Shown: positions 1-7,703, counted from the stretch's first letter. The stretch is 7,869 nt of DNA from a virus (IMGVR_UViG_2778261644_000009), one strand, 5' to 3'. The notes: generated by a model from the letters alone, not told the origin. Numbers and translations are program-made.

Positions 1-12
1 AATTAGCTACCA

Positions 13-144
13 CCACAGAATTCTGTTAATCTTAACTTTTAAAGAGATTTGTACCCAAACAAAAGTCTGTTACCCCACCTATACAGAAAACTGTTAGATT
101 CAACCACAGAAAACTGTTAGACACCCCCACAGAATTCTGTTACC
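13..144. repeat. Array of five direct repeats (iterons), each with a 12-bp internal dyad ACAGAAnnCTGT followed by TA; putative initiator-binding sites of a replication origin
   Basis: Dyads at 15-26 (ACAGAATTCTGT), 59-70 (ACAAAAGTCTGT, degenerate), 83-94 and 106-117 (ACAGAAAACTGT), 129-140 (ACAGAATTCTGT); each preceded by a C-rich stretch; centres 20.5, 64.5, 88.5, 111.5, 134.5, i.e. 22-24 bp or multiples (about two helical turns). Window starts inside or just before the array, so it may extend upstream. Confidence 0.6.
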
Positions 145-148
145 TATT

Positions 149-206
149 AGATCATTTATTAAATTACTTATTAAATTATAATATTATATATTTATTTATA
201 TGATCT
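149..206. promoter_or_regulatory. AT-rich block, putative DNA-unwinding element of the origin
   Basis: About 46 bp of almost pure A/T (155-200) immediately after the iterons, flanked by inverted 6-mers AGATCA (149-154) and TGATCT (201-206), each with a GATC site; tandem TTATTAAATTA at 156-166 and 168-178. Confidence 0.4.
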
Positions 207-437: not shown

Positions 438-595
438 AATTCCACTTCCTACATTCTGTAGTCGTGTAATTACTCGAAGAGAGAGCGGCTAAAGCTCAAT
501 TACACTCTGCTTTCCTCGTGTAATTTCACTAAGCCTCAATACAATTCCACTTCCTACATTTAATAACTCTCGTTATTCTCTGTAGTTGTGTAATT
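438..595. repeat. Two copies of a composite direct repeat: AATTCCACTTCCTACATT followed by CTGTAGTYGTGTAATT, the second copy with a 24-bp insertion
   Basis: Perfect 18-mer at 438-455 and 543-560. CTGTAGTCGTGTAATT at 456-471 and CTGTAGTTGTGTAATT at 580-595. YGTGTAAYT also at 318-326 and 517-525, and inverted (AATTACAC) at 498-505, giving mutually exclusive pairings 464-471/498-505 or 498-505/518-525. Confidence 0.6.
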
Positions 596-1107
596 GTTTT
601 CGGTGGAAAAGCCAGAGGCGACACCGAAAGAGAATTCTGATCTTATTAATCTTATCTATCTTAGTTAATCTTCTTACTTATCTTACTTACTTTATCTACT
701 TTATTATTAATAATAGCTTTATAAGCTCTCTGACGCAAGAAACAGAGTTCAGGAAGGGAATCACCTTAGAAAAGTGTTCTTTGCGTCATAATGTGTTTTA
801 TGAAGGATTCAGAGGTGTTTCATAACAGGAGTGTATAGAGGATACTTTAATTAATTAAATATAAGGGGTCTAAATGCTTCTCTAACAGCATTAAGCAGGG
901 TAGGGAATGGAAACGCATTGCCTACATATATAATCTCACTACAGGGCTTTACAGAGCGTTTTATAAAGTGACTCTCTATCTTATATCTACCATTACCTTT
1001 TCATATACCTAACAAATACAAAATAAGCCCCTTAAATAAGCCTCTGGCGAGCTAAACAACCTCTACATAAGAGAATGTATTGCTTTTATCAAAACTTCGT
1101 TAGAACG

Positions 1108-1127
1108 CGTTTTAGAGCGTTTTAGAC
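1108..1127. repeat. Perfect tandem duplication GCGTTTTAGA x2 (candidate operator) upstream of the early promoter
   Basis: GCGTTTTAGA at 1108-1117 and 1118-1127; related GCGTTTTATA at 956-965; adjacent 8-bp palindrome AACGCGTT at 1104-1111; about 90 bp upstream of the -35 at 1219. Confidence 0.5.
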
Positions 1128-1218
1128 AATAATGAAGAATAGCACCACACAGGAGAGCACGAATTGCTAAGAAAAAATGTAAGTGCATGAAAAAGATCAG
1201 ATTTTTTATGAAAAGGTA

Positions 1219-1247
1219 TTGACAAATGTTTCTTTATATGTAATAAT
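1219..1247 (+). promoter_or_regulatory. Sigma70-type promoter for the early operon
   Basis: TTGACA (1219-1224), 17-bp spacer, AATAAT (1242-1247); A/T-rich upstream; first gene starts at 1358 with SD AAGGAG (1346-1351). Confidence 0.5.
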
Positions 1248-1357
1248 AGGTATTAGAGGGACAGAAAACATTCTTCTCTAAATAATCAAAATCAATGCAC
1301 TTTGAAGCCGTCAGGCTTGCAAGGTGTTTTTTCTTTTAACTGAATAAGGAGTTTTTT

Positions 1358-1546
1358 ATGAAATGGTTTACATCGGAGCACGTCATCGAGGCATTTAAAA
1401 AAGGTGAGCTAACACGCCACCAAGTAGTAATGAACCGTAATATGGCAAGGAGTCGAGGTTATCCAGAGCGAGCAGCTTGCTTCAATGAAGCACTCAAGAT
1501 TATTGATGAACTAAGAAAAAATGAAAAAGAATCTGAAACAGAGTAA
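1358..1546 (+). CDS. Small hypothetical protein (62 aa), possibly regulatory
   Basis: ATG 1358 with SD AAGGAG 6 nt upstream; first gene after the promoter; stop 20 nt before the next SD-led gene. No recognisable motif. Confidence 0.55.
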   Translation: MKWFTSEHVIEAFKKGELTRHQVVMNRNMARSRGYPERAACFNEALKIIDELRKNEKESETE

Positions 1547-1565
1547 AGAATAGAAGGAGAAAACT

Positions 1566-1733
1566 ATGAGCGAAACTAAGAAACCAATTCCGCGCACTTA
1601 CCTACACGTTGACCCTGAAATCTTCAAGGTTTTATTTGCTGAAGCCAAGAAAAGGCAAATTATGGTCAGTGATTTGATGTTAGAAATCATTACTGAAGCA
1701 GCAGAGAACATCAAACAAAAAAAGGGTAAGTGA
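1566..1733 (+). CDS. Putative ribbon-helix-helix (CopG/Arc/MetJ-like) DNA-binding protein, 55 aa; absent from the supplied ORF track
   Basis: ATG 1566 with SD AAGGAG (1554-1559); translation MSETKKPIPRTYLHVDPEIFKVLFAEAKKRQIMVSDLMLEIITEAAENIKQKKGK; strand-like RTYLHVDPEIF followed by two amphipathic helices, the RHH pattern; stop TGA 1731-1733. Confidence 0.5.
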   Translation: MSETKKPIPRTYLHVDPEIFKVLFAEAKKRQIMVSDLMLEIITEAAENIKQKKGK

Positions 1734-1784
1734 TCCTCATTCACTTTAGTAGCGCATTAAGCGTGATTTATAAGGAGATTTTTA

Positions 1785-2438
1785 ATGATTAATGAAGAAC
1801 AATTTGTAAAAGTTCCTATGTGGATTCTAAAAATAAGCCAAGTAAACGGGCATAAATTTACAGATAGTGCTAAAAACCTTTACTGCTATCTGAAAGGGTT
1901 TGATCGTGCATTTCCCTCTTACGCTAAGATAGGCGATGTTTTTGGCATAACACCAAGAGCAGCAGAGGAAAGGGTTAAGAAATTGCTCGAAATGGGATTA
2001 ATTATAAAAGATGCACGACCAGGAAGTTCTAATGTCTATCAAGTGGTAGATATTCCACAAGAAGAAGCTAGACAAGAAGCCCAGACACAACAAGAAGCTA
2101 CTGTTAAAGCTGTTCCTGATCAGCTTCCCCCTACGGAAGATAATAAAGAGTCTTCTTTTGATGTTCTTGATGATTGGGATGCGCCTTTGCCGTGGGAGAC
2201 GGAAGAAACACCTGTTTCATCAAGTGAAAAAGTAGCTAATGATAATGAGGAGGATGTGTTAGAGAATTTTGCCTCTCTTATCTGCCAGCAGAAACACACC
2301 AGAACAGGAGGGGCATCATTTATTGAGTTTGCAAATTCACTAGCTTATAGATACGGGCTAAAGCTACCAAATGGTATTGAGGCATATTTTTCTAAGCATT
2401 ACCCAAATGTGTATGATGACTTTGATATTCCATTTTAA
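1785..2438 (+). CDS. Putative replication initiator / replisome organiser: N-terminal winged helix-turn-helix, acidic linker, C-terminus ending DDFDIPF (SSB C-terminal-tip-like)
   Basis: SD AAGGAG (1772-1777) 7 nt before ATG. N-terminal pattern LYCYLKGF...PSYAKIGDVFGITPRAAEERVKKLLEMGLII typical of phage/plasmid initiator wHTH; acidic stretch PQEEARQEAQTQQEA...; last seven codons (2415-2435) encode D-D-F-D-I-P-F, cf. E. coli SSB ...DFDDDIPF. Confidence 0.8.
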   Translation: MINEEQFVKVPMWILKISQVNGHKFTDSAKNLYCYLKGFDRAFPSYAKIGDVFGITPRAAEERVKKLLEMGLIIKDARPGSSNVYQVVDIPQEEARQEAQTQQEATVKAVPDQLPPTEDNKESSFDVLDDWDAPLPWETEETPVSSSEKVANDNEEDVLENFASLICQQKHTRTGGASFIEFANSLAYRYGLKLPNGIEAYFSKHYPNVYDDFDIPF

Positions 2439-4536: not shown

Positions 4537-5565
4537 ATGATTCTAGGTAATGATTACGTTGATTTAGCTCCTCTGTTCTCTGCGCATAGCACTAGAAACT
4601 ATCTGCTTTCTACTCTCGACTTCACTGATCCGGTGGGCGTTAGTTCTCATAAAGTAGCTGTTTCCCAGCTTGTCGAAAGCAACGAATCTCTGTTCAACAA
4701 AGAAACCTCTCGTTTCTCTTCTGAACACAACGTTACTAAGCGAGAACAAGGTAAAGAATGGCTGATCGAGATCCCTTACTTCCTGCGTGAAGATGTGATC
4801 CGTCCTTCTGATGTTCAAGGCAAACGTAAACCTGGCACTGATTTCCAGGAAACACTCACTGATATCTACGCGGAATATGTTGCTAAACACAATGTTGCAT
4901 TCCAGCGTACAAAAGAGAGCGTGTTGGCGGCTTCTTTGTTCTCTGGCAAAACTTACACGCCTAAAACTGATGATGTTCTTATCGAATGGGGCAAGCTGTT
5001 TAACGTATCAGCTATGAAAGCCACTGTGAACGCTTCCAGCACTGACACCACGAAGATTTTTAAAGAATTTGATCAGATTGCTACTGACATTATCGAAAAA
5101 GCACAAAGCCAGGCGGCTGCTGTAGAGCGTATTGTTGTTTTCTGTAAGCCGGAAGCATTCTCTGCAATTCGATTCTCTGCGGGTATGGCAAACGCATTCC
5201 AGTATGTAAGCCCACTGGAAGAAGGGAACGTTGTGTACCAGCGTCGTGACCTGCTACCGGGGGTGACAGCGTTCACTATTCCAGGAACTAACATTGATGT
5301 TATTAAACTGGTAGATCCGCTACACCTTGCACATATGACCGCAGACGCTGTAGCGATTCCGAGGTTTGCTAAGGGGGCAGGTGTTTATGCCAACATCTTC
5401 GGGGCGGCTTCCAGCACCTTTGAACTGATTAATACCGCTCCTGCTGAGGTTTATAGCTATAGCTATGAATCTTCTCGTGGTGATGCTGTTAACGTTGTTA
5501 CAGAGAATAGCCAGATGGTTGTAAACCACGGCGTTGGCTTCTCCGTTCAAATCACTGTGAAATAA
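4537..5565 (+). CDS. Highly expressed 342-aa protein; putative major structural (capsid-like) protein, assignment tentative
   Basis: ATG 4537 after AAAGGA; codon usage visibly different from the AT-rich early genes (CTG, CGT, GGT/GGC, TCT, AAA, GAA, as in highly expressed enterobacterial genes); no signal peptide or nucleotide-binding motif; followed by the strongest terminator in the window. Confidence 0.85.
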   Translation: MILGNDYVDLAPLFSAHSTRNYLLSTLDFTDPVGVSSHKVAVSQLVESNESLFNKETSRFSSEHNVTKREQGKEWLIEIPYFLREDVIRPSDVQGKRKPGTDFQETLTDIYAEYVAKHNVAFQRTKESVLAASLFSGKTYTPKTDDVLIEWGKLFNVSAMKATVNASSTDTTKIFKEFDQIATDIIEKAQSQAAAVERIVVFCKPEAFSAIRFSAGMANAFQYVSPLEEGNVVYQRRDLLPGVTAFTIPGTNIDVIKLVDPLHLAHMTADAVAIPRFAKGAGVYANIFGAASSTFELINTAPAEVYSYSYESSRGDAVNVVTENSQMVVNHGVGFSVQITVK

Positions 5566-5870: not shown

Positions 5871-7703
5871 ATGTTAGAAATTAACACTTCTAAAATTAAG
5901 AACACAGTTACATTTAGTGTAGATAAAGACAGCTTGAAAAAAGCGAAAGACTCTATTACAGGCTTAAAGGAATTCGCCGAAAATATCAAGCCAGCTAAGC
6001 TGAGATTTGATAGTGTCACTAAAGGCTATAAGAAAGCACAAAGTGAAGTAGACAAGATTGCTCAACAGAAAGCTAAAACAGAAAAACAAAATCAAAGAGC
6101 ACAAGCTGCCGCAGCAAGAGCACAGGCAAGGCAACAGCAACAAATAGCAGCACGTAAAGAGAAAGCAGAATTAAAGCTCCTTGATGTATCAAGCTCTATC
6201 AGTGCAATGCACCGTCTCTCTGTAGCTGAACAATACAAAGCTATTGCACAGGCTAGAGAGATAGCAAAACAATATGAGCAAGGGGCTATCTCGCTTGCAC
6301 GTATGAATAGCCAAATGAAACGCCTACAACAGCAACAACGTAAGATTAATGGCAACAGAAAAGCTCAATTAGCCCCCGTTAAGGGAGGAGGATCAGGGAA
6401 TGCCGCCACTATGGGCGCTCTGTTATTTGGAGGCGCTACAGCGGCTGCTGGCGTGATGGCTGTTAGTAAAACCTCTGAATTTATGGCTAATAGCTTTGCT
6501 AACGCAGATACCCAAGGGGAGCTAATTCAACGTGCCAAGCTGGGCGGTGTAGACGTTAACCAGATGTATAATATTACAGAATGGGCGTATAGAAACGGCG
6601 TTGACTCTATGATGGGTGATCAAGGGGCTAGGAAATACCTGGATCAGATGAAAGATGTTAGGGAACGTGCCGCAAAATCCTACAGTGAAGCTGAATTGGT
6701 GAAAGATAAGAAAACCGGAAAATCTGAATGGAAAGGCGGTGATAACGCTATTAATGAACTTCTAAACATCGGTGTTATTAACAAAAGCGACCTTAAAAAA
6801 TTTGCTGATAATCCGGCTGGATTAATTTCTAAGGCTGTTAATGGAATGATGAAAAAAGGGTTTTCAGACTCCCAAATTGGACAACGTTTAGAAGACCTGG
6901 GCGATGATTTGATGCTTACATCAAAATATTGGCAACGTTCCGTTAAAGATGTACAAGAAAGTATTAATCAGCAAAAAGCCTCTGGAAAATGGCTAACAGA
7001 AACACAGCAAGACTCTATTGTTAAATTCAGAGAACTAAACAGACAGCTTTCACAGCTTTCTGATGCAAGACAAGTAGCATTCGTAGACGGCTTTATGAAA
7101 TCTCTCGATCCAAAAGTAACGGAAGAGTTTATGAAAAACCTTTCTAATCTCACTCCGTATTTTACGAAACTAGGGGAAGCTGTAGGAAGTCTCTTTGAGG
7201 CTATTATGAAGCTTGTAAACTGGTTTAATCGTAATGATGATAAGACAGATGCTATTCAGAAAAATTTAGGTGATGCACCGCCATTAAGCAATGAAGGGAT
7301 GAAACAGCATCTTTCTAATCTCGTTCCTGACCAATATAAAGGCGCTGGAACTGCAACAACTGCACCTGATAATAGTCATTCTCTCTTTAATACAATTAAG
7401 GGATTGCTTTTTGATGATAATTCTTCTGTGTCAGATGTAAAAATGTCAGTTAGTGAAGCACCGATAACCAATCTCAAACAGGGTGCTTTAAATAATCTTG
7501 CAATGACAACTCCGGCTTATAATTTATCTCCTGTGTTTAATCTGAATCCAACGTTTGAAGTGGTAACAGAGGTTCCTCTTACTATTAATTCTGACACATC
7601 AAGATTAAGCGATTATGTGGATTTTACAGCGAGAGCAAGTCGGGATAGCTTCTTGAAATCATTAACATTAACCAGCTTATCAGGACAATCCAACGGCGGG
7701 TAA
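5871..7703 (+). CDS. Large coiled-coil protein (610 aa) with internal Gly/Ala-rich hydrophobic segment; tape-measure-like or ejection/pilot-type structural protein (tentative)
   Basis: ATG 5871 after AAGGGGA; N-terminal 160 aa rich in K/Q/A/R heptad-like sequence (KAKTEKQNQRAQAAAARAQARQQQQIAARKEKAELK); then GGGSGNAATMGALLFGGATAAAGVMAV; no N-terminal signal peptide, no HUH or Walker motifs. Confidence 0.85.
   Translation: MLEINTSKIKNTVTFSVDKDSLKKAKDSITGLKEFAENIKPAKLRFDSVTKGYKKAQSEVDKIAQQKAKTEKQNQRAQAAAARAQARQQQQIAARKEKAELKLLDVSSSISAMHRLSVAEQYKAIAQAREIAKQYEQGAISLARMNSQMKRLQQQQRKINGNRKAQLAPVKGGGSGNAATMGALLFGGATAAAGVMAVSKTSEFMANSFANADTQGELIQRAKLGGVDVNQMYNITEWAYRNGVDSMMGDQGARKYLDQMKDVRERAAKSYSEAELVKDKKTGKSEWKGGDNAINELLNIGVINKSDLKKFADNPAGLISKAVNGMMKKGFSDSQIGQRLEDLGDDLMLTSKYWQRSVKDVQESINQQKASGKWLTETQQDSIVKFRELNRQLSQLSDARQVAFVDGFMKSLDPKVTEEFMKNLSNLTPYFTKLGEAVGSLFEAIMKLVNWFNRNDDKTDAIQKNLGDAPPLSNEGMKQHLSNLVPDQYKGAGTATTAPDNSHSLFNTIKGLLFDDNSSVSDVKMSVSEAPITNLKQGALNNLAMTTPAYNLSPVFNLNPTFEVVTEVPLTINSDTSRLSDYVDFTARASRDSFLKSLTLTSLSGQSNGG

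Follow-up and report, generated by a model that had tools for sequence, protein, structure and literature searches.

The locus and the element that carries it

The DNA analysed here, called the window throughout, is a stretch of 7,869 nucleotides (nt) from a virus entry (IMGVR_UViG_2778261644_000009) that forms part of an 11-12 kb integrative element of Escherichia coli. Near its start, at 13-206, five directly repeated units, or iterons, are followed by a block of very low GC content, and at 1785-2438 lies a gene for a protein of 217 amino acids (aa), which we call Rep. The subject of this paper is the likely role of the repeats as the replication origin of the element and of Rep as its initiator, together with the relationship of both to a small set of phage proteins.

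The element is common. Full-length matches to the window, at 93-95% identity, are present in the chromosomes of 195 complete E. coli genomes, and partial matches occur in 742 of 5426 such genomes (~14%), at a median of two places per genome; its backbone was found at ~1260 places in the 5426. Its insertion disrupts the LysR gene srsR in strain Z0117EC0116, and in strain SA186 it follows a tRNA-Thr gene (thrW), next to proA. From attL it runs through 0.7-2.2 kb of nearly gene-free DNA into the window, and from there into a Dit-like 'baseplate' gene (a Dit-like distal tail protein, at 9249-9962 of locus L266) and a tyrosine integrase on the opposite strand. The coding order within the window is four small proteins, Rep among them, then several hypothetical proteins, a lambda-E-type major capsid protein (MCP; 4537-5565) and a tape-measure-like protein (5871-7703). 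Profile searches against Pfam and PHROG recognised no terminase, portal, helicase or primase in the element. We infer that it is a phage-satellite-like island of E. coli; the possession of capsid and tail parts of its own, with no recognised terminase or portal, is unusual for a satellite.

The iteron array

The five direct copies of the repeat ACAGAAnnCTGTTA, here termed A-type, start at 15, 59, 83, 106 and 129 and adjoin the block of ~8% GC. With their flanks they occupy, on the + strand, 13-28 (CC-ACAGAATTCTGT-TA, with a perfect 12-bp palindromic core that is invariant in all four aligned A-type arrays), 57-72 (AA-ACAAAAGTCTGT-TA, a degenerate copy with one mismatch whose counterpart in locus L127 is the full ACAGAAAACTGTTA), 81-96 (ACAGAAAACTGTTA), 104-119 (CC-ACAGAAAACTGT-TA) and 127-142 (CC-ACAGAATTCTGT-TA, directly adjoining the AT-rich block). 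Start-to-start distances are 44, 24, 23 and 23 bp, copies 3-5 being contiguous 23-bp units (TTAGACACCCCCACAGAAnnCTG). Iteron-type origins have three or more direct repeats of ~17-23 bp in helical phase, and the five copies agree with this.

The original prediction, made from the sequence of the window, was of five direct, phased copies, and this was assessed quantitatively through matches to ACAGAANNCTGTTA. On the + strand these begin at the same five positions, the copy at 59 (ACAAAAGTCTGTTA) having one mismatch. Allowing up to two mismatches, both strands of the 7.9-kb window give eight matches, against 1.02 expected, and none of 200 dinucleotide shuffles reaches eight; two of the eight arise because ACAGAATTCTGT, at 15-26 and at 129-140, is a perfect palindrome and so reads on the - strand as well. 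The five copies are thus upheld. The prediction had also given all of them the form CC-core-TA, which describes copies 1, 4 and 5; copies 2 and 3 do not have the CC flank. Among the four aligned A arrays the cores never vary, differences being confined to the central NN and to the spacers, a pattern that suggests selection acting on the iteron cores and that we count as support for an origin.

It had further been suspected that the window begins inside the array. It does begin inside a repeat unit, but the unit is not an A-type iteron: by alignment with loci L002, L139 and L127, bases 1-12 (+ strand) are what is left of the final unit of another family, the B-type, GGTCAnnGTGAnCTAcc. That family (GGTCAnnGTGAnCTA...) has an array of its own upstream in related loci, for example at L002 5790-6005. 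No open reading frame (ORF) of at least 40 aa crosses 1-199, in agreement with the claim that the iterons are free of reading frames. The homologous region is without annotation in E. coli genomes, and an Rfam scan of the whole window (E up to 1) returned two chance-level matches only, both far from the array.

The AT-rich block

Immediately downstream, at 144-206, lies the AT-rich block, a putative DNA-unwinding element. At its ends are the inverted hexamers AGATCA (149-154) and TGATCT (201-206), whose GATCs, at 150 and 202, are the only ones within 430 bp, and inside it TTATTAAATTA occurs twice in tandem, at 157-167 and 169-179; both features had been foreseen. GC content at 151-210 is 8.3%, the lowest of the first 1.5 kb, and this stretch, which directly follows iteron 5, provides the adjacent AT-rich segment that an unwinding element calls for. 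A length of 46 bp had been given for the run of A/T; the run is present but is ~48 bp long, with one C in it.

A copy of AGAATTCTG does lie at 630-638, the position at which it had been reported, inside the longer sequence GACACCGAAAGAGAATTCTGATC. Because GACACCGAAAGAGAATTCTGATC is identical in elements of all five iteron classes described below, the copy is a part of the backbone and not a cognate iteron, and the suggestion that it allows handcuffing or looping was rejected on the same ground.

Several other features of the non-coding DNA surround these sequences. A GC-rich island (58-62% GC at 211-300) comes directly after the 8%-GC block, and a perfect 10-bp inverted repeat (312-321 and 345-354) folds as a branched hairpin. 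Folding of 205-400 as single-stranded DNA gives weak z-scores of -2.1 and -1.7; the region 210-400 could be a priming signal or a signal for single-strand initiation. Further downstream, at 637-703, degenerate CTTATCT and CTTACTT repeats (GC 18-23%) make up a second AT-rich repeat stretch of the conserved non-coding backbone. The motif WTTACACR (extended, GnATTACACAGGGAATA) is present in seven copies on the + strand upstream of the origin zone (L002 4975-5749) and in three on the - strand downstream of it, at window 463-470, 517-524 and 587-594. The two sets are convergent, bracket the putative origin and occur in elements of all Rep classes.

The Rep-like protein

Rep is a two-part protein. 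Its first part, residues 1-95 or so (1785-2069, + strand), is predicted to be a winged-helix DNA-binding domain and would be the specificity module of class A. The second (2070-2438, + strand) consists of an acidic linker and a conserved helical C-terminal domain that is common to classes A, B, C/M, D and E. Compared across the elements, the C-terminal half is shared (...WETEETPVSS...DFDIPF), with near-invariant residues spanning aa 124-217 in alignments across classes, while the first 90-100 residues come in unrelated versions. PHROG families named 'replication initiation protein', 'replication initiation O-like' and 'DnaD-like helicase loader' match the protein at 3e-10 to 1e-3, with replication-initiation and O-like families at 3e-10 to 5e-8 and O-like ones extending over 4.7e-8 to 5e-6. 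Searches of Pfam and of PDB sequences gave no family or structure match for the C-terminal domain, and those of PDB sequences no informative relative; the domain presumably recruits a helicase or replisome.

An arrangement of this kind is also seen in small terminase subunits (TerS), which have an N-terminal helix-turn-helix (HTH), a linker and a conserved C-terminal partner-binding domain. Rep could accordingly be imagined as small-terminase-like, binding the repeats as a pac site through its HTH and recruiting the large terminase of a helper phage through its C-terminus, so that the repeats would set the start of packaging and not of replication. Such a role would suit an element that has capsid and tail parts and no recognisable terminase; the co-variation of head and repeats described below would be expected of it too, and a satellite would likewise suffer if a phage nuclease targeted its pac site. 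The annotated PHROG matches speak differently, every one being a replication initiator, an O-like protein or a DnaD-like loader and none a terminase small subunit. The middle of the protein is modelled, at low confidence, as a disordered acidic linker, not as an oligomerisation core, and phased direct iterons beside an 8%-GC block are the canonical layout of an origin. We treat packaging as the main rival to the origin reading, but as an unlikely one.

The promoter nearest to the array is a near-consensus sigma70 promoter at 1219-1247 (TTGACA, 17 nt, AATAAT, with an extended -10 TG; 11 of 12 positions match), which precedes the operon ORF62-RHH-Rep-ORF92. Its position bears on a further possibility, in keeping with the RefSeq names of the protein, 'transcriptional regulator' or 'helix-turn-helix domain-containing protein': that Rep binds the repeats as operators, controlling genes of the element or an unannotated RNA, and has no part in replication. 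Palindromic ACAGAAnnCTGT-like sites are operators in unrelated gut phages, and many replication initiators also autoregulate. Against this, the array lies ~1.1 kb from that promoter, the only strong one, and 1.2 kb from the first ORF, and a distance of more than 1 kb from the only convincing promoter tells against an operator. Nor is there an iteron copy near 1219-1247 or an Rfam RNA; five copies in the same orientation followed by an AT-rich block are not the layout of operators, and the family similarities of the protein are to initiators. A purely regulatory array is, in our judgement, unlikely.

Co-variation of array and Rep head

Related elements carry at this place one of five unrelated repeat families, with the copies all in one orientation and, after them, an AT-rich block that differs from family to family and contains GATC. 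Class A, that of the window, is ACAGAAnnCTGTTA; class B is GGTCAnnGTGAnCTAGGGGGTA, class C CCCTATCAAnnnTGATACC and class D TAGGAARTGRKTTCC, and class E is of the GTAACG...GTTACA type. The class of the array that touches the last AT block was compared with the N-terminal class of Rep in integrative-element loci with enough upstream DNA, a few of them duplicates of the same contig. The two agree in all 27 loci, with no exception seen. Arrays of class A accompany the head MINEEQFVKVPMWIL... (11 loci), those of class B MINQLTFTKHYDTFD... (10 loci), those of class C MIKHTKPFLGIDYDLL..., the 'M' head (4 loci), those of class D ...WYSPSGNEYTATLP... (2 loci) and that of class E ...IREKYQYVDKQ... (1 locus). 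The C/M pairing was predicted in writing before the M-type loci were fetched, and the prediction held. The A head, moreover, is found with three different C-termini, among them that of a second element lineage ~78% identical in DNA, and has A iterons upstream each time.

A tblastn matrix showed that Rep aa 1-90 alone tracks class; RHH55, ORF62, ORF92, ORF136, the C-terminal part of Rep (Rep-C) and the MCP are class-independent. Identity is 100% for the RHH protein among A, B and E elements, 90-98% for ORF92 throughout and, between classes, 76-95% for Rep-C. The 92-aa and RHH proteins had been named beforehand as possible binders of the repeats: since neither follows iteron class both are poor candidates, and RHH55 and ORF92 were rejected as iteron binders for that reason. 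Genome counts agree closely, the A array being present in 174 of the 5426 E. coli genomes (179 places) and DNA for the A-type Rep N-terminal part (Rep-N) in 173 (176 places). In silico, the class pairing is that of a cis-encoded initiator with an iteron-specific DNA-binding domain, and from it Rep-N very probably reads the A-type iterons.

The same comparisons bear on whether the repeats serve recombination instead, as arm-type sites for integrase or excisionase (part of attP) or as a transposon end. Arm sites of integrative elements are typically direct repeats lying close to an end, and in Z0117EC0116 (L001 8680-9935) an IS3 copy precedes the A array by ~90 bp, in a locus that lacks the cassettes and ATTACAC repeats found upstream in other elements. 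The array is, on the other hand, 0.7-2.2 kb from attL, with the integrase at the other end, and the same A array occurs in elements at srsR and in elements at tRNA-Thr (thrW). Both the distance from attL and the difference in insertion sites count against an att arm site, and the outcome that the original prediction had named as refuting it, an att site or transposon end in close relatives, does not hold. Class tracks Rep-N, linkage to integrase or insertion site having been tabulated only for the A array at both sites, and IS3 is found in a minority of the copies listed. Very little credence can be given to a recombination site.

The case for a replication origin

One-to-one co-variation and similarity to replication-initiator families together support reading the array and its AT-rich block as an origin and the 217-aa ORF as its initiator, as originally predicted. 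The five-class pairing, the PHROG initiator and O-like matches and the near-equal counts of 174 and 173 genomes all contribute in silico.

A number of observations pull the other way. Co-variation proves that head and repeats are functionally coupled, not that the coupling serves replication, and many of the 27 loci are closely related, the independent events amounting to about five class pairings and three class-A backgrounds. Pfam HTH_36 scores 19.9 bits in the window protein, below its cut-off of 25; the sister classes range from 19.9 to 25.2 bits, one of them above the cut-off, and the phage copies described below are well above it. Pfam Phage_rep_O (PF04492) does not match the window protein, whose label of 'transcriptional regulator' must also be set on this side. 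An AF2 model of Rep shows H-H-H-beta-beta at 27-87 and the disordered acidic linker at mid-protein, at low confidence (pLDDT 52). Neither a DnaA box (TTATCCACA, at most one mismatch) nor the IHF consensus (WATCAANNNNTTR) was found in 1-1400. Finally, the lack of a recognised gene for a helicase, primase or loader makes autonomous replication doubtful. Weighing both sides, we consider that 13-206 is probably the vegetative replication origin of the element, a judgement drawn from sequence comparison.

The mechanism we envisage begins with dimers of Rep, whose winged-helix heads would contact the palindromic core of each of the five iterons, phased at 23 bp, as co-variation and family similarity suggest. 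Each iteron would combine a palindromic ACAG..CTGT core with asymmetric flanks that give direction. The resulting nucleoprotein array would melt the adjoining 8%-GC block, to judge from the layout, and the conserved C-terminal helical domain would recruit a helicase or replisome from outside the element. As the element has no recognisable helicase, primase or loader, this machinery would be supplied by a helper phage during infection or, less likely, by the host. Replication would then be helper-dependent, and recent exchange of DNA with Stephanstirmvirinae, described below, points to these phages as the partners.

An origin of iterons and an AT-rich block in a phage-related island is by itself an ordinary kind of feature. 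What the proposal adds is a role for 200 bp that had no annotation and for a gene labelled 'transcriptional regulator', in an element that about one in seven complete E. coli genomes carry.

Exchange and stacking of arrays

Many E. coli matches to the window begin only at 145-178 and many end at ~1790; many extend from 145 to 1796, and these exclude the array and, apart from some twelve bases at its start, the rep gene. It follows from such limits that the iterons and the start of the gene have been replaced and the DNA between them kept. The ~1.6 kb between array and initiator gene is conserved between classes and does not track iteron class, which means that the two modules have not been exchanged as a single block. 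Array and initiator head would thus appear to form an exchangeable specificity module, with at least five unrelated pairs on an otherwise conserved backbone. A swappable origin of at least five specificities on one backbone would be a natural set of orthogonal Rep/ori pairs.

Arrays of different class are also often stacked, as remnants or as whole cassettes. SA186 has a B array with its AT block, two more B units and then an A array with its AT block. In strain APEC O1 one A unit, two C units and four D units with an AT block are followed by four B units with an AT block. Complete non-cognate arrays with AT-rich blocks of their own lie upstream of the cognate array at L002 5790-6005, L125 3190-3470 and L126 3200-3480, and leftover single units recur in the order B-A-C-D. 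The stacked non-cognate cassettes may be, among other possibilities, fossils of past swaps or alternative origins fired by co-resident elements.

Two further observations concern the element as a whole. A 166-kb conjugative E. coli plasmid (NZ_CP126938.1) carries window 984-1787, a segment of regulatory DNA and small ORFs, at 90.7% identity, without iterons or rep gene. Contigs of 10.7-10.8 kb, considered as excised circular copies, were rejected, being assembly fragments that end in integrase genes.

Phage chimeras of Rep heads and a nuclease-like domain

Phage genomes searched by megablast yielded matches to the window in only four phages, all of them virulent coliphages of the Stephanstirmvirinae known as sequenced isolates: Mt1B1_P17 (window 1746-2138, 90.0% nt identity), BI-EHEC (1760-2079, 95.3%), muut (1554-2138 in two pieces, 99.3%) and inny (1554-1787, 97.9%). 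The phage genes concerned encode proteins of 328-332 aa, annotated 'hypothetical', in which two tandem HTH_36 heads precede a C-terminal domain. In QNJ49226 of Mt1B1_P17 (L004 4040-5023) the heads are A and then D; in muut_154 (L003 4232-5227) they are M, the partner of C iterons, and then D, with the same C-terminal domain. By tblastn the full chimera is present in four phages only, in six records of the collection searched.

The C-terminal domain of the chimeras matches PHROG 681 'endonuclease' at 2e-18 to 2e-19, Pfam MUG113 at 22.5 bits (cut-off 22.3) and, weakly, T5orf172. Its tblastn alignments are with proteins of T5-like, jumbo and Vibrio phages that are annotated as homing or GIY-YIG endonucleases. 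No homologue was returned for the C-terminal 130 aa of the nuclease, and NCBIfam gave no match either. The AF2 model of a phage chimera (P0017) has a pLDDT of 42, with ~25-30 in the nuclease part.

Clusters of iterons of classes A-E were sought in the complete genomes of Mt1B1_P17 (151,202 bp) and muut (146,307 bp) and none was found, the control element loci giving 3-6 sites per 200 bp. Since the heads are shared and the two scanned genomes have no arrays, the phage proteins would carry the specificity of satellite origins without having sites for it at home. The absence of any five-class array from these genomes also led us to reject helper-origin mimicry, in which the satellite copies a phage origin and is fired by the phage initiator. 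Matches to the iteron and to iteron pairs in IMG/VR were likewise dismissed as phage origins: those inspected, beyond copies of the same element, were unrelated, one being a contig of 153 kb with a tandem repeat of 50 bp and the others gut phages of ~57 kb with TGTACAGAAnnCTGTACA operators, and gave no evidence of a phage origin with these iterons.

The gene for a 55-aa RHH-like protein at window 1566-1733 is 98-99% identical in nucleotides to muut_153 and to a gene of inny, where the gene for the chimeric nuclease comes immediately after it. RHH gene and Rep head were apparently acquired jointly by the phages.

The phage chimeras are candidate origin-directed anti-satellite nucleases, and the fusion of a shared head to a nuclease suggests an arms race over the origin. 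A broader interpretation, whose chances of being right we put as evenly balanced, joins these strands. The iterons of the window would belong to a set of five or more cassettes, exchangeable for one another, in an E. coli satellite family that had not been described before and that often has at least two copies per genome; they would also be the direct target of two-headed, origin-directed nucleases. Mt1B1_P17, BI-EHEC, muut and inny would have built these from captured Rep heads and a homing-endonuclease domain, and the swapping and stacking of cassettes would be the record of escape.

The capsid protein offers another, weak, link. Its only phage relatives are MCPs of Pseudomonas Pakpunavirus and Otagovirus, at 23-26% aa identity, and that clade has been placed near the MCPs of Stephanstirmvirinae and Vequintavirinae (PMC12846349). 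No description of this element, or of any E. coli satellite of Stephanstirmvirinae, was found in the searchable literature, which is no proof that none exists.

Comparison with known systems

The layout resembles that of theta plasmids (R6K pi, pSC101 RepA, F RepE and P1 RepA) in its direct iterons, its AT-rich unwinding element and its cis-encoded winged-helix initiator of matched specificity. It differs in that no DnaA box or IHF site was found, these being common but not universal in such plasmids, and in showing no sign of a second, copy-control set of iterons, the look-alike at 630-638 being class-independent. Rep is modelled, at low confidence, with a single winged HTH and an acidic linker, not with the two-winged-HTH fold of RepE and pi, and the element is chromosomal. 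With SaPI and other PICI islands the element shares a satellite-borne, island-specific origin, with iterons around an AT-rich stretch, matched to its own initiator. The Rep of PICIs, however, is of helicase type and their ori lies just downstream of rep, whereas the ORFs of the window include no NTPase, helicase or primase domain and the putative origin is far upstream.

The original prediction called the origin lambdoid in style. In lambda O, as proposed for Rep, the N-terminal half binds DNA and the C-terminal half recruits the helicase complex. As an analogy the description stands: in both, an AT-rich region comes after several phased iterons that have internal dyad symmetry, and PHROG O-like families match the protein. 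It does not extend further, since the Phage_rep_O profile is not reached, the putative origin is not in the initiator gene but 1.6 kb upstream of it in non-coding DNA, no P-like loader domain was found in any ORF of the window, and what carries it is no lambdoid phage but an integrative island of 11-12 kb.

The closest parallel is with PLE, a satellite of Vibrio cholerae (Barth et al. 2021, PMC8263062), and the phage ICP1. The origin of PLE likewise consists of semi-palindromic iterons in non-coding DNA away from the rep gene. The N-terminal domain of its initiator co-varies with the origin, its C-terminal domain is conserved, and the module has been swapped repeatedly, all as seen here. Common to both systems, too, is a virulent-phage chimera of a Rep-like DNA-binding domain with a T5orf172/GIY-YIG nuclease. 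In ICP1 this is Odn, whose N-terminal domain, 42% identical to the RepA_N of PLE, is fused to T5orf172, and which cuts the PLE origin in an iteron-dependent manner (PMC8263062). Odn is the only experimentally established precedent for the fusion of a satellite-origin head to a nuclease, and there the shared head marks a satellite origin. By analogy, the iterons of the window would be initiator binding sites at an origin; that such nucleases drive the swapping of classes is a more speculative extension of the parallel. No E. coli nuclease resembling Odn was found described in the searchable literature, which does not prove that none exists.

The two systems are nevertheless unrelated in sequence, the head here being HTH_36-like with no match to RepA_N, and they differ in host (E. 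coli), in phages (Stephanstirmvirinae) and in that ours is known from sequence alone. PLE has two specificity classes, compared with at least five here, where non-cognate iteron/AT cassettes are also stacked. The chimeras of the present phages have two tandem heads of different class (A+D or M+D), with 90-99% nt identity to the element, compared with 42% aa identity for Odn. If the phage chimeras are origin-directed nucleases aimed at satellites, what has so far been seen only with Vibrio PLE and ICP1 would prove to be a general phenomenon; and if the broader interpretation is true, this would be a second, independent and far more diversified arms race of the PLE/ICP1-Odn type, in a tractable model host. 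By analogy, the element would work most like the ori/RepA module of PLE, and its five specificities, its stacked cassettes and the two-headed chimeras at 90-99% nt identity would appear to go beyond that precedent.

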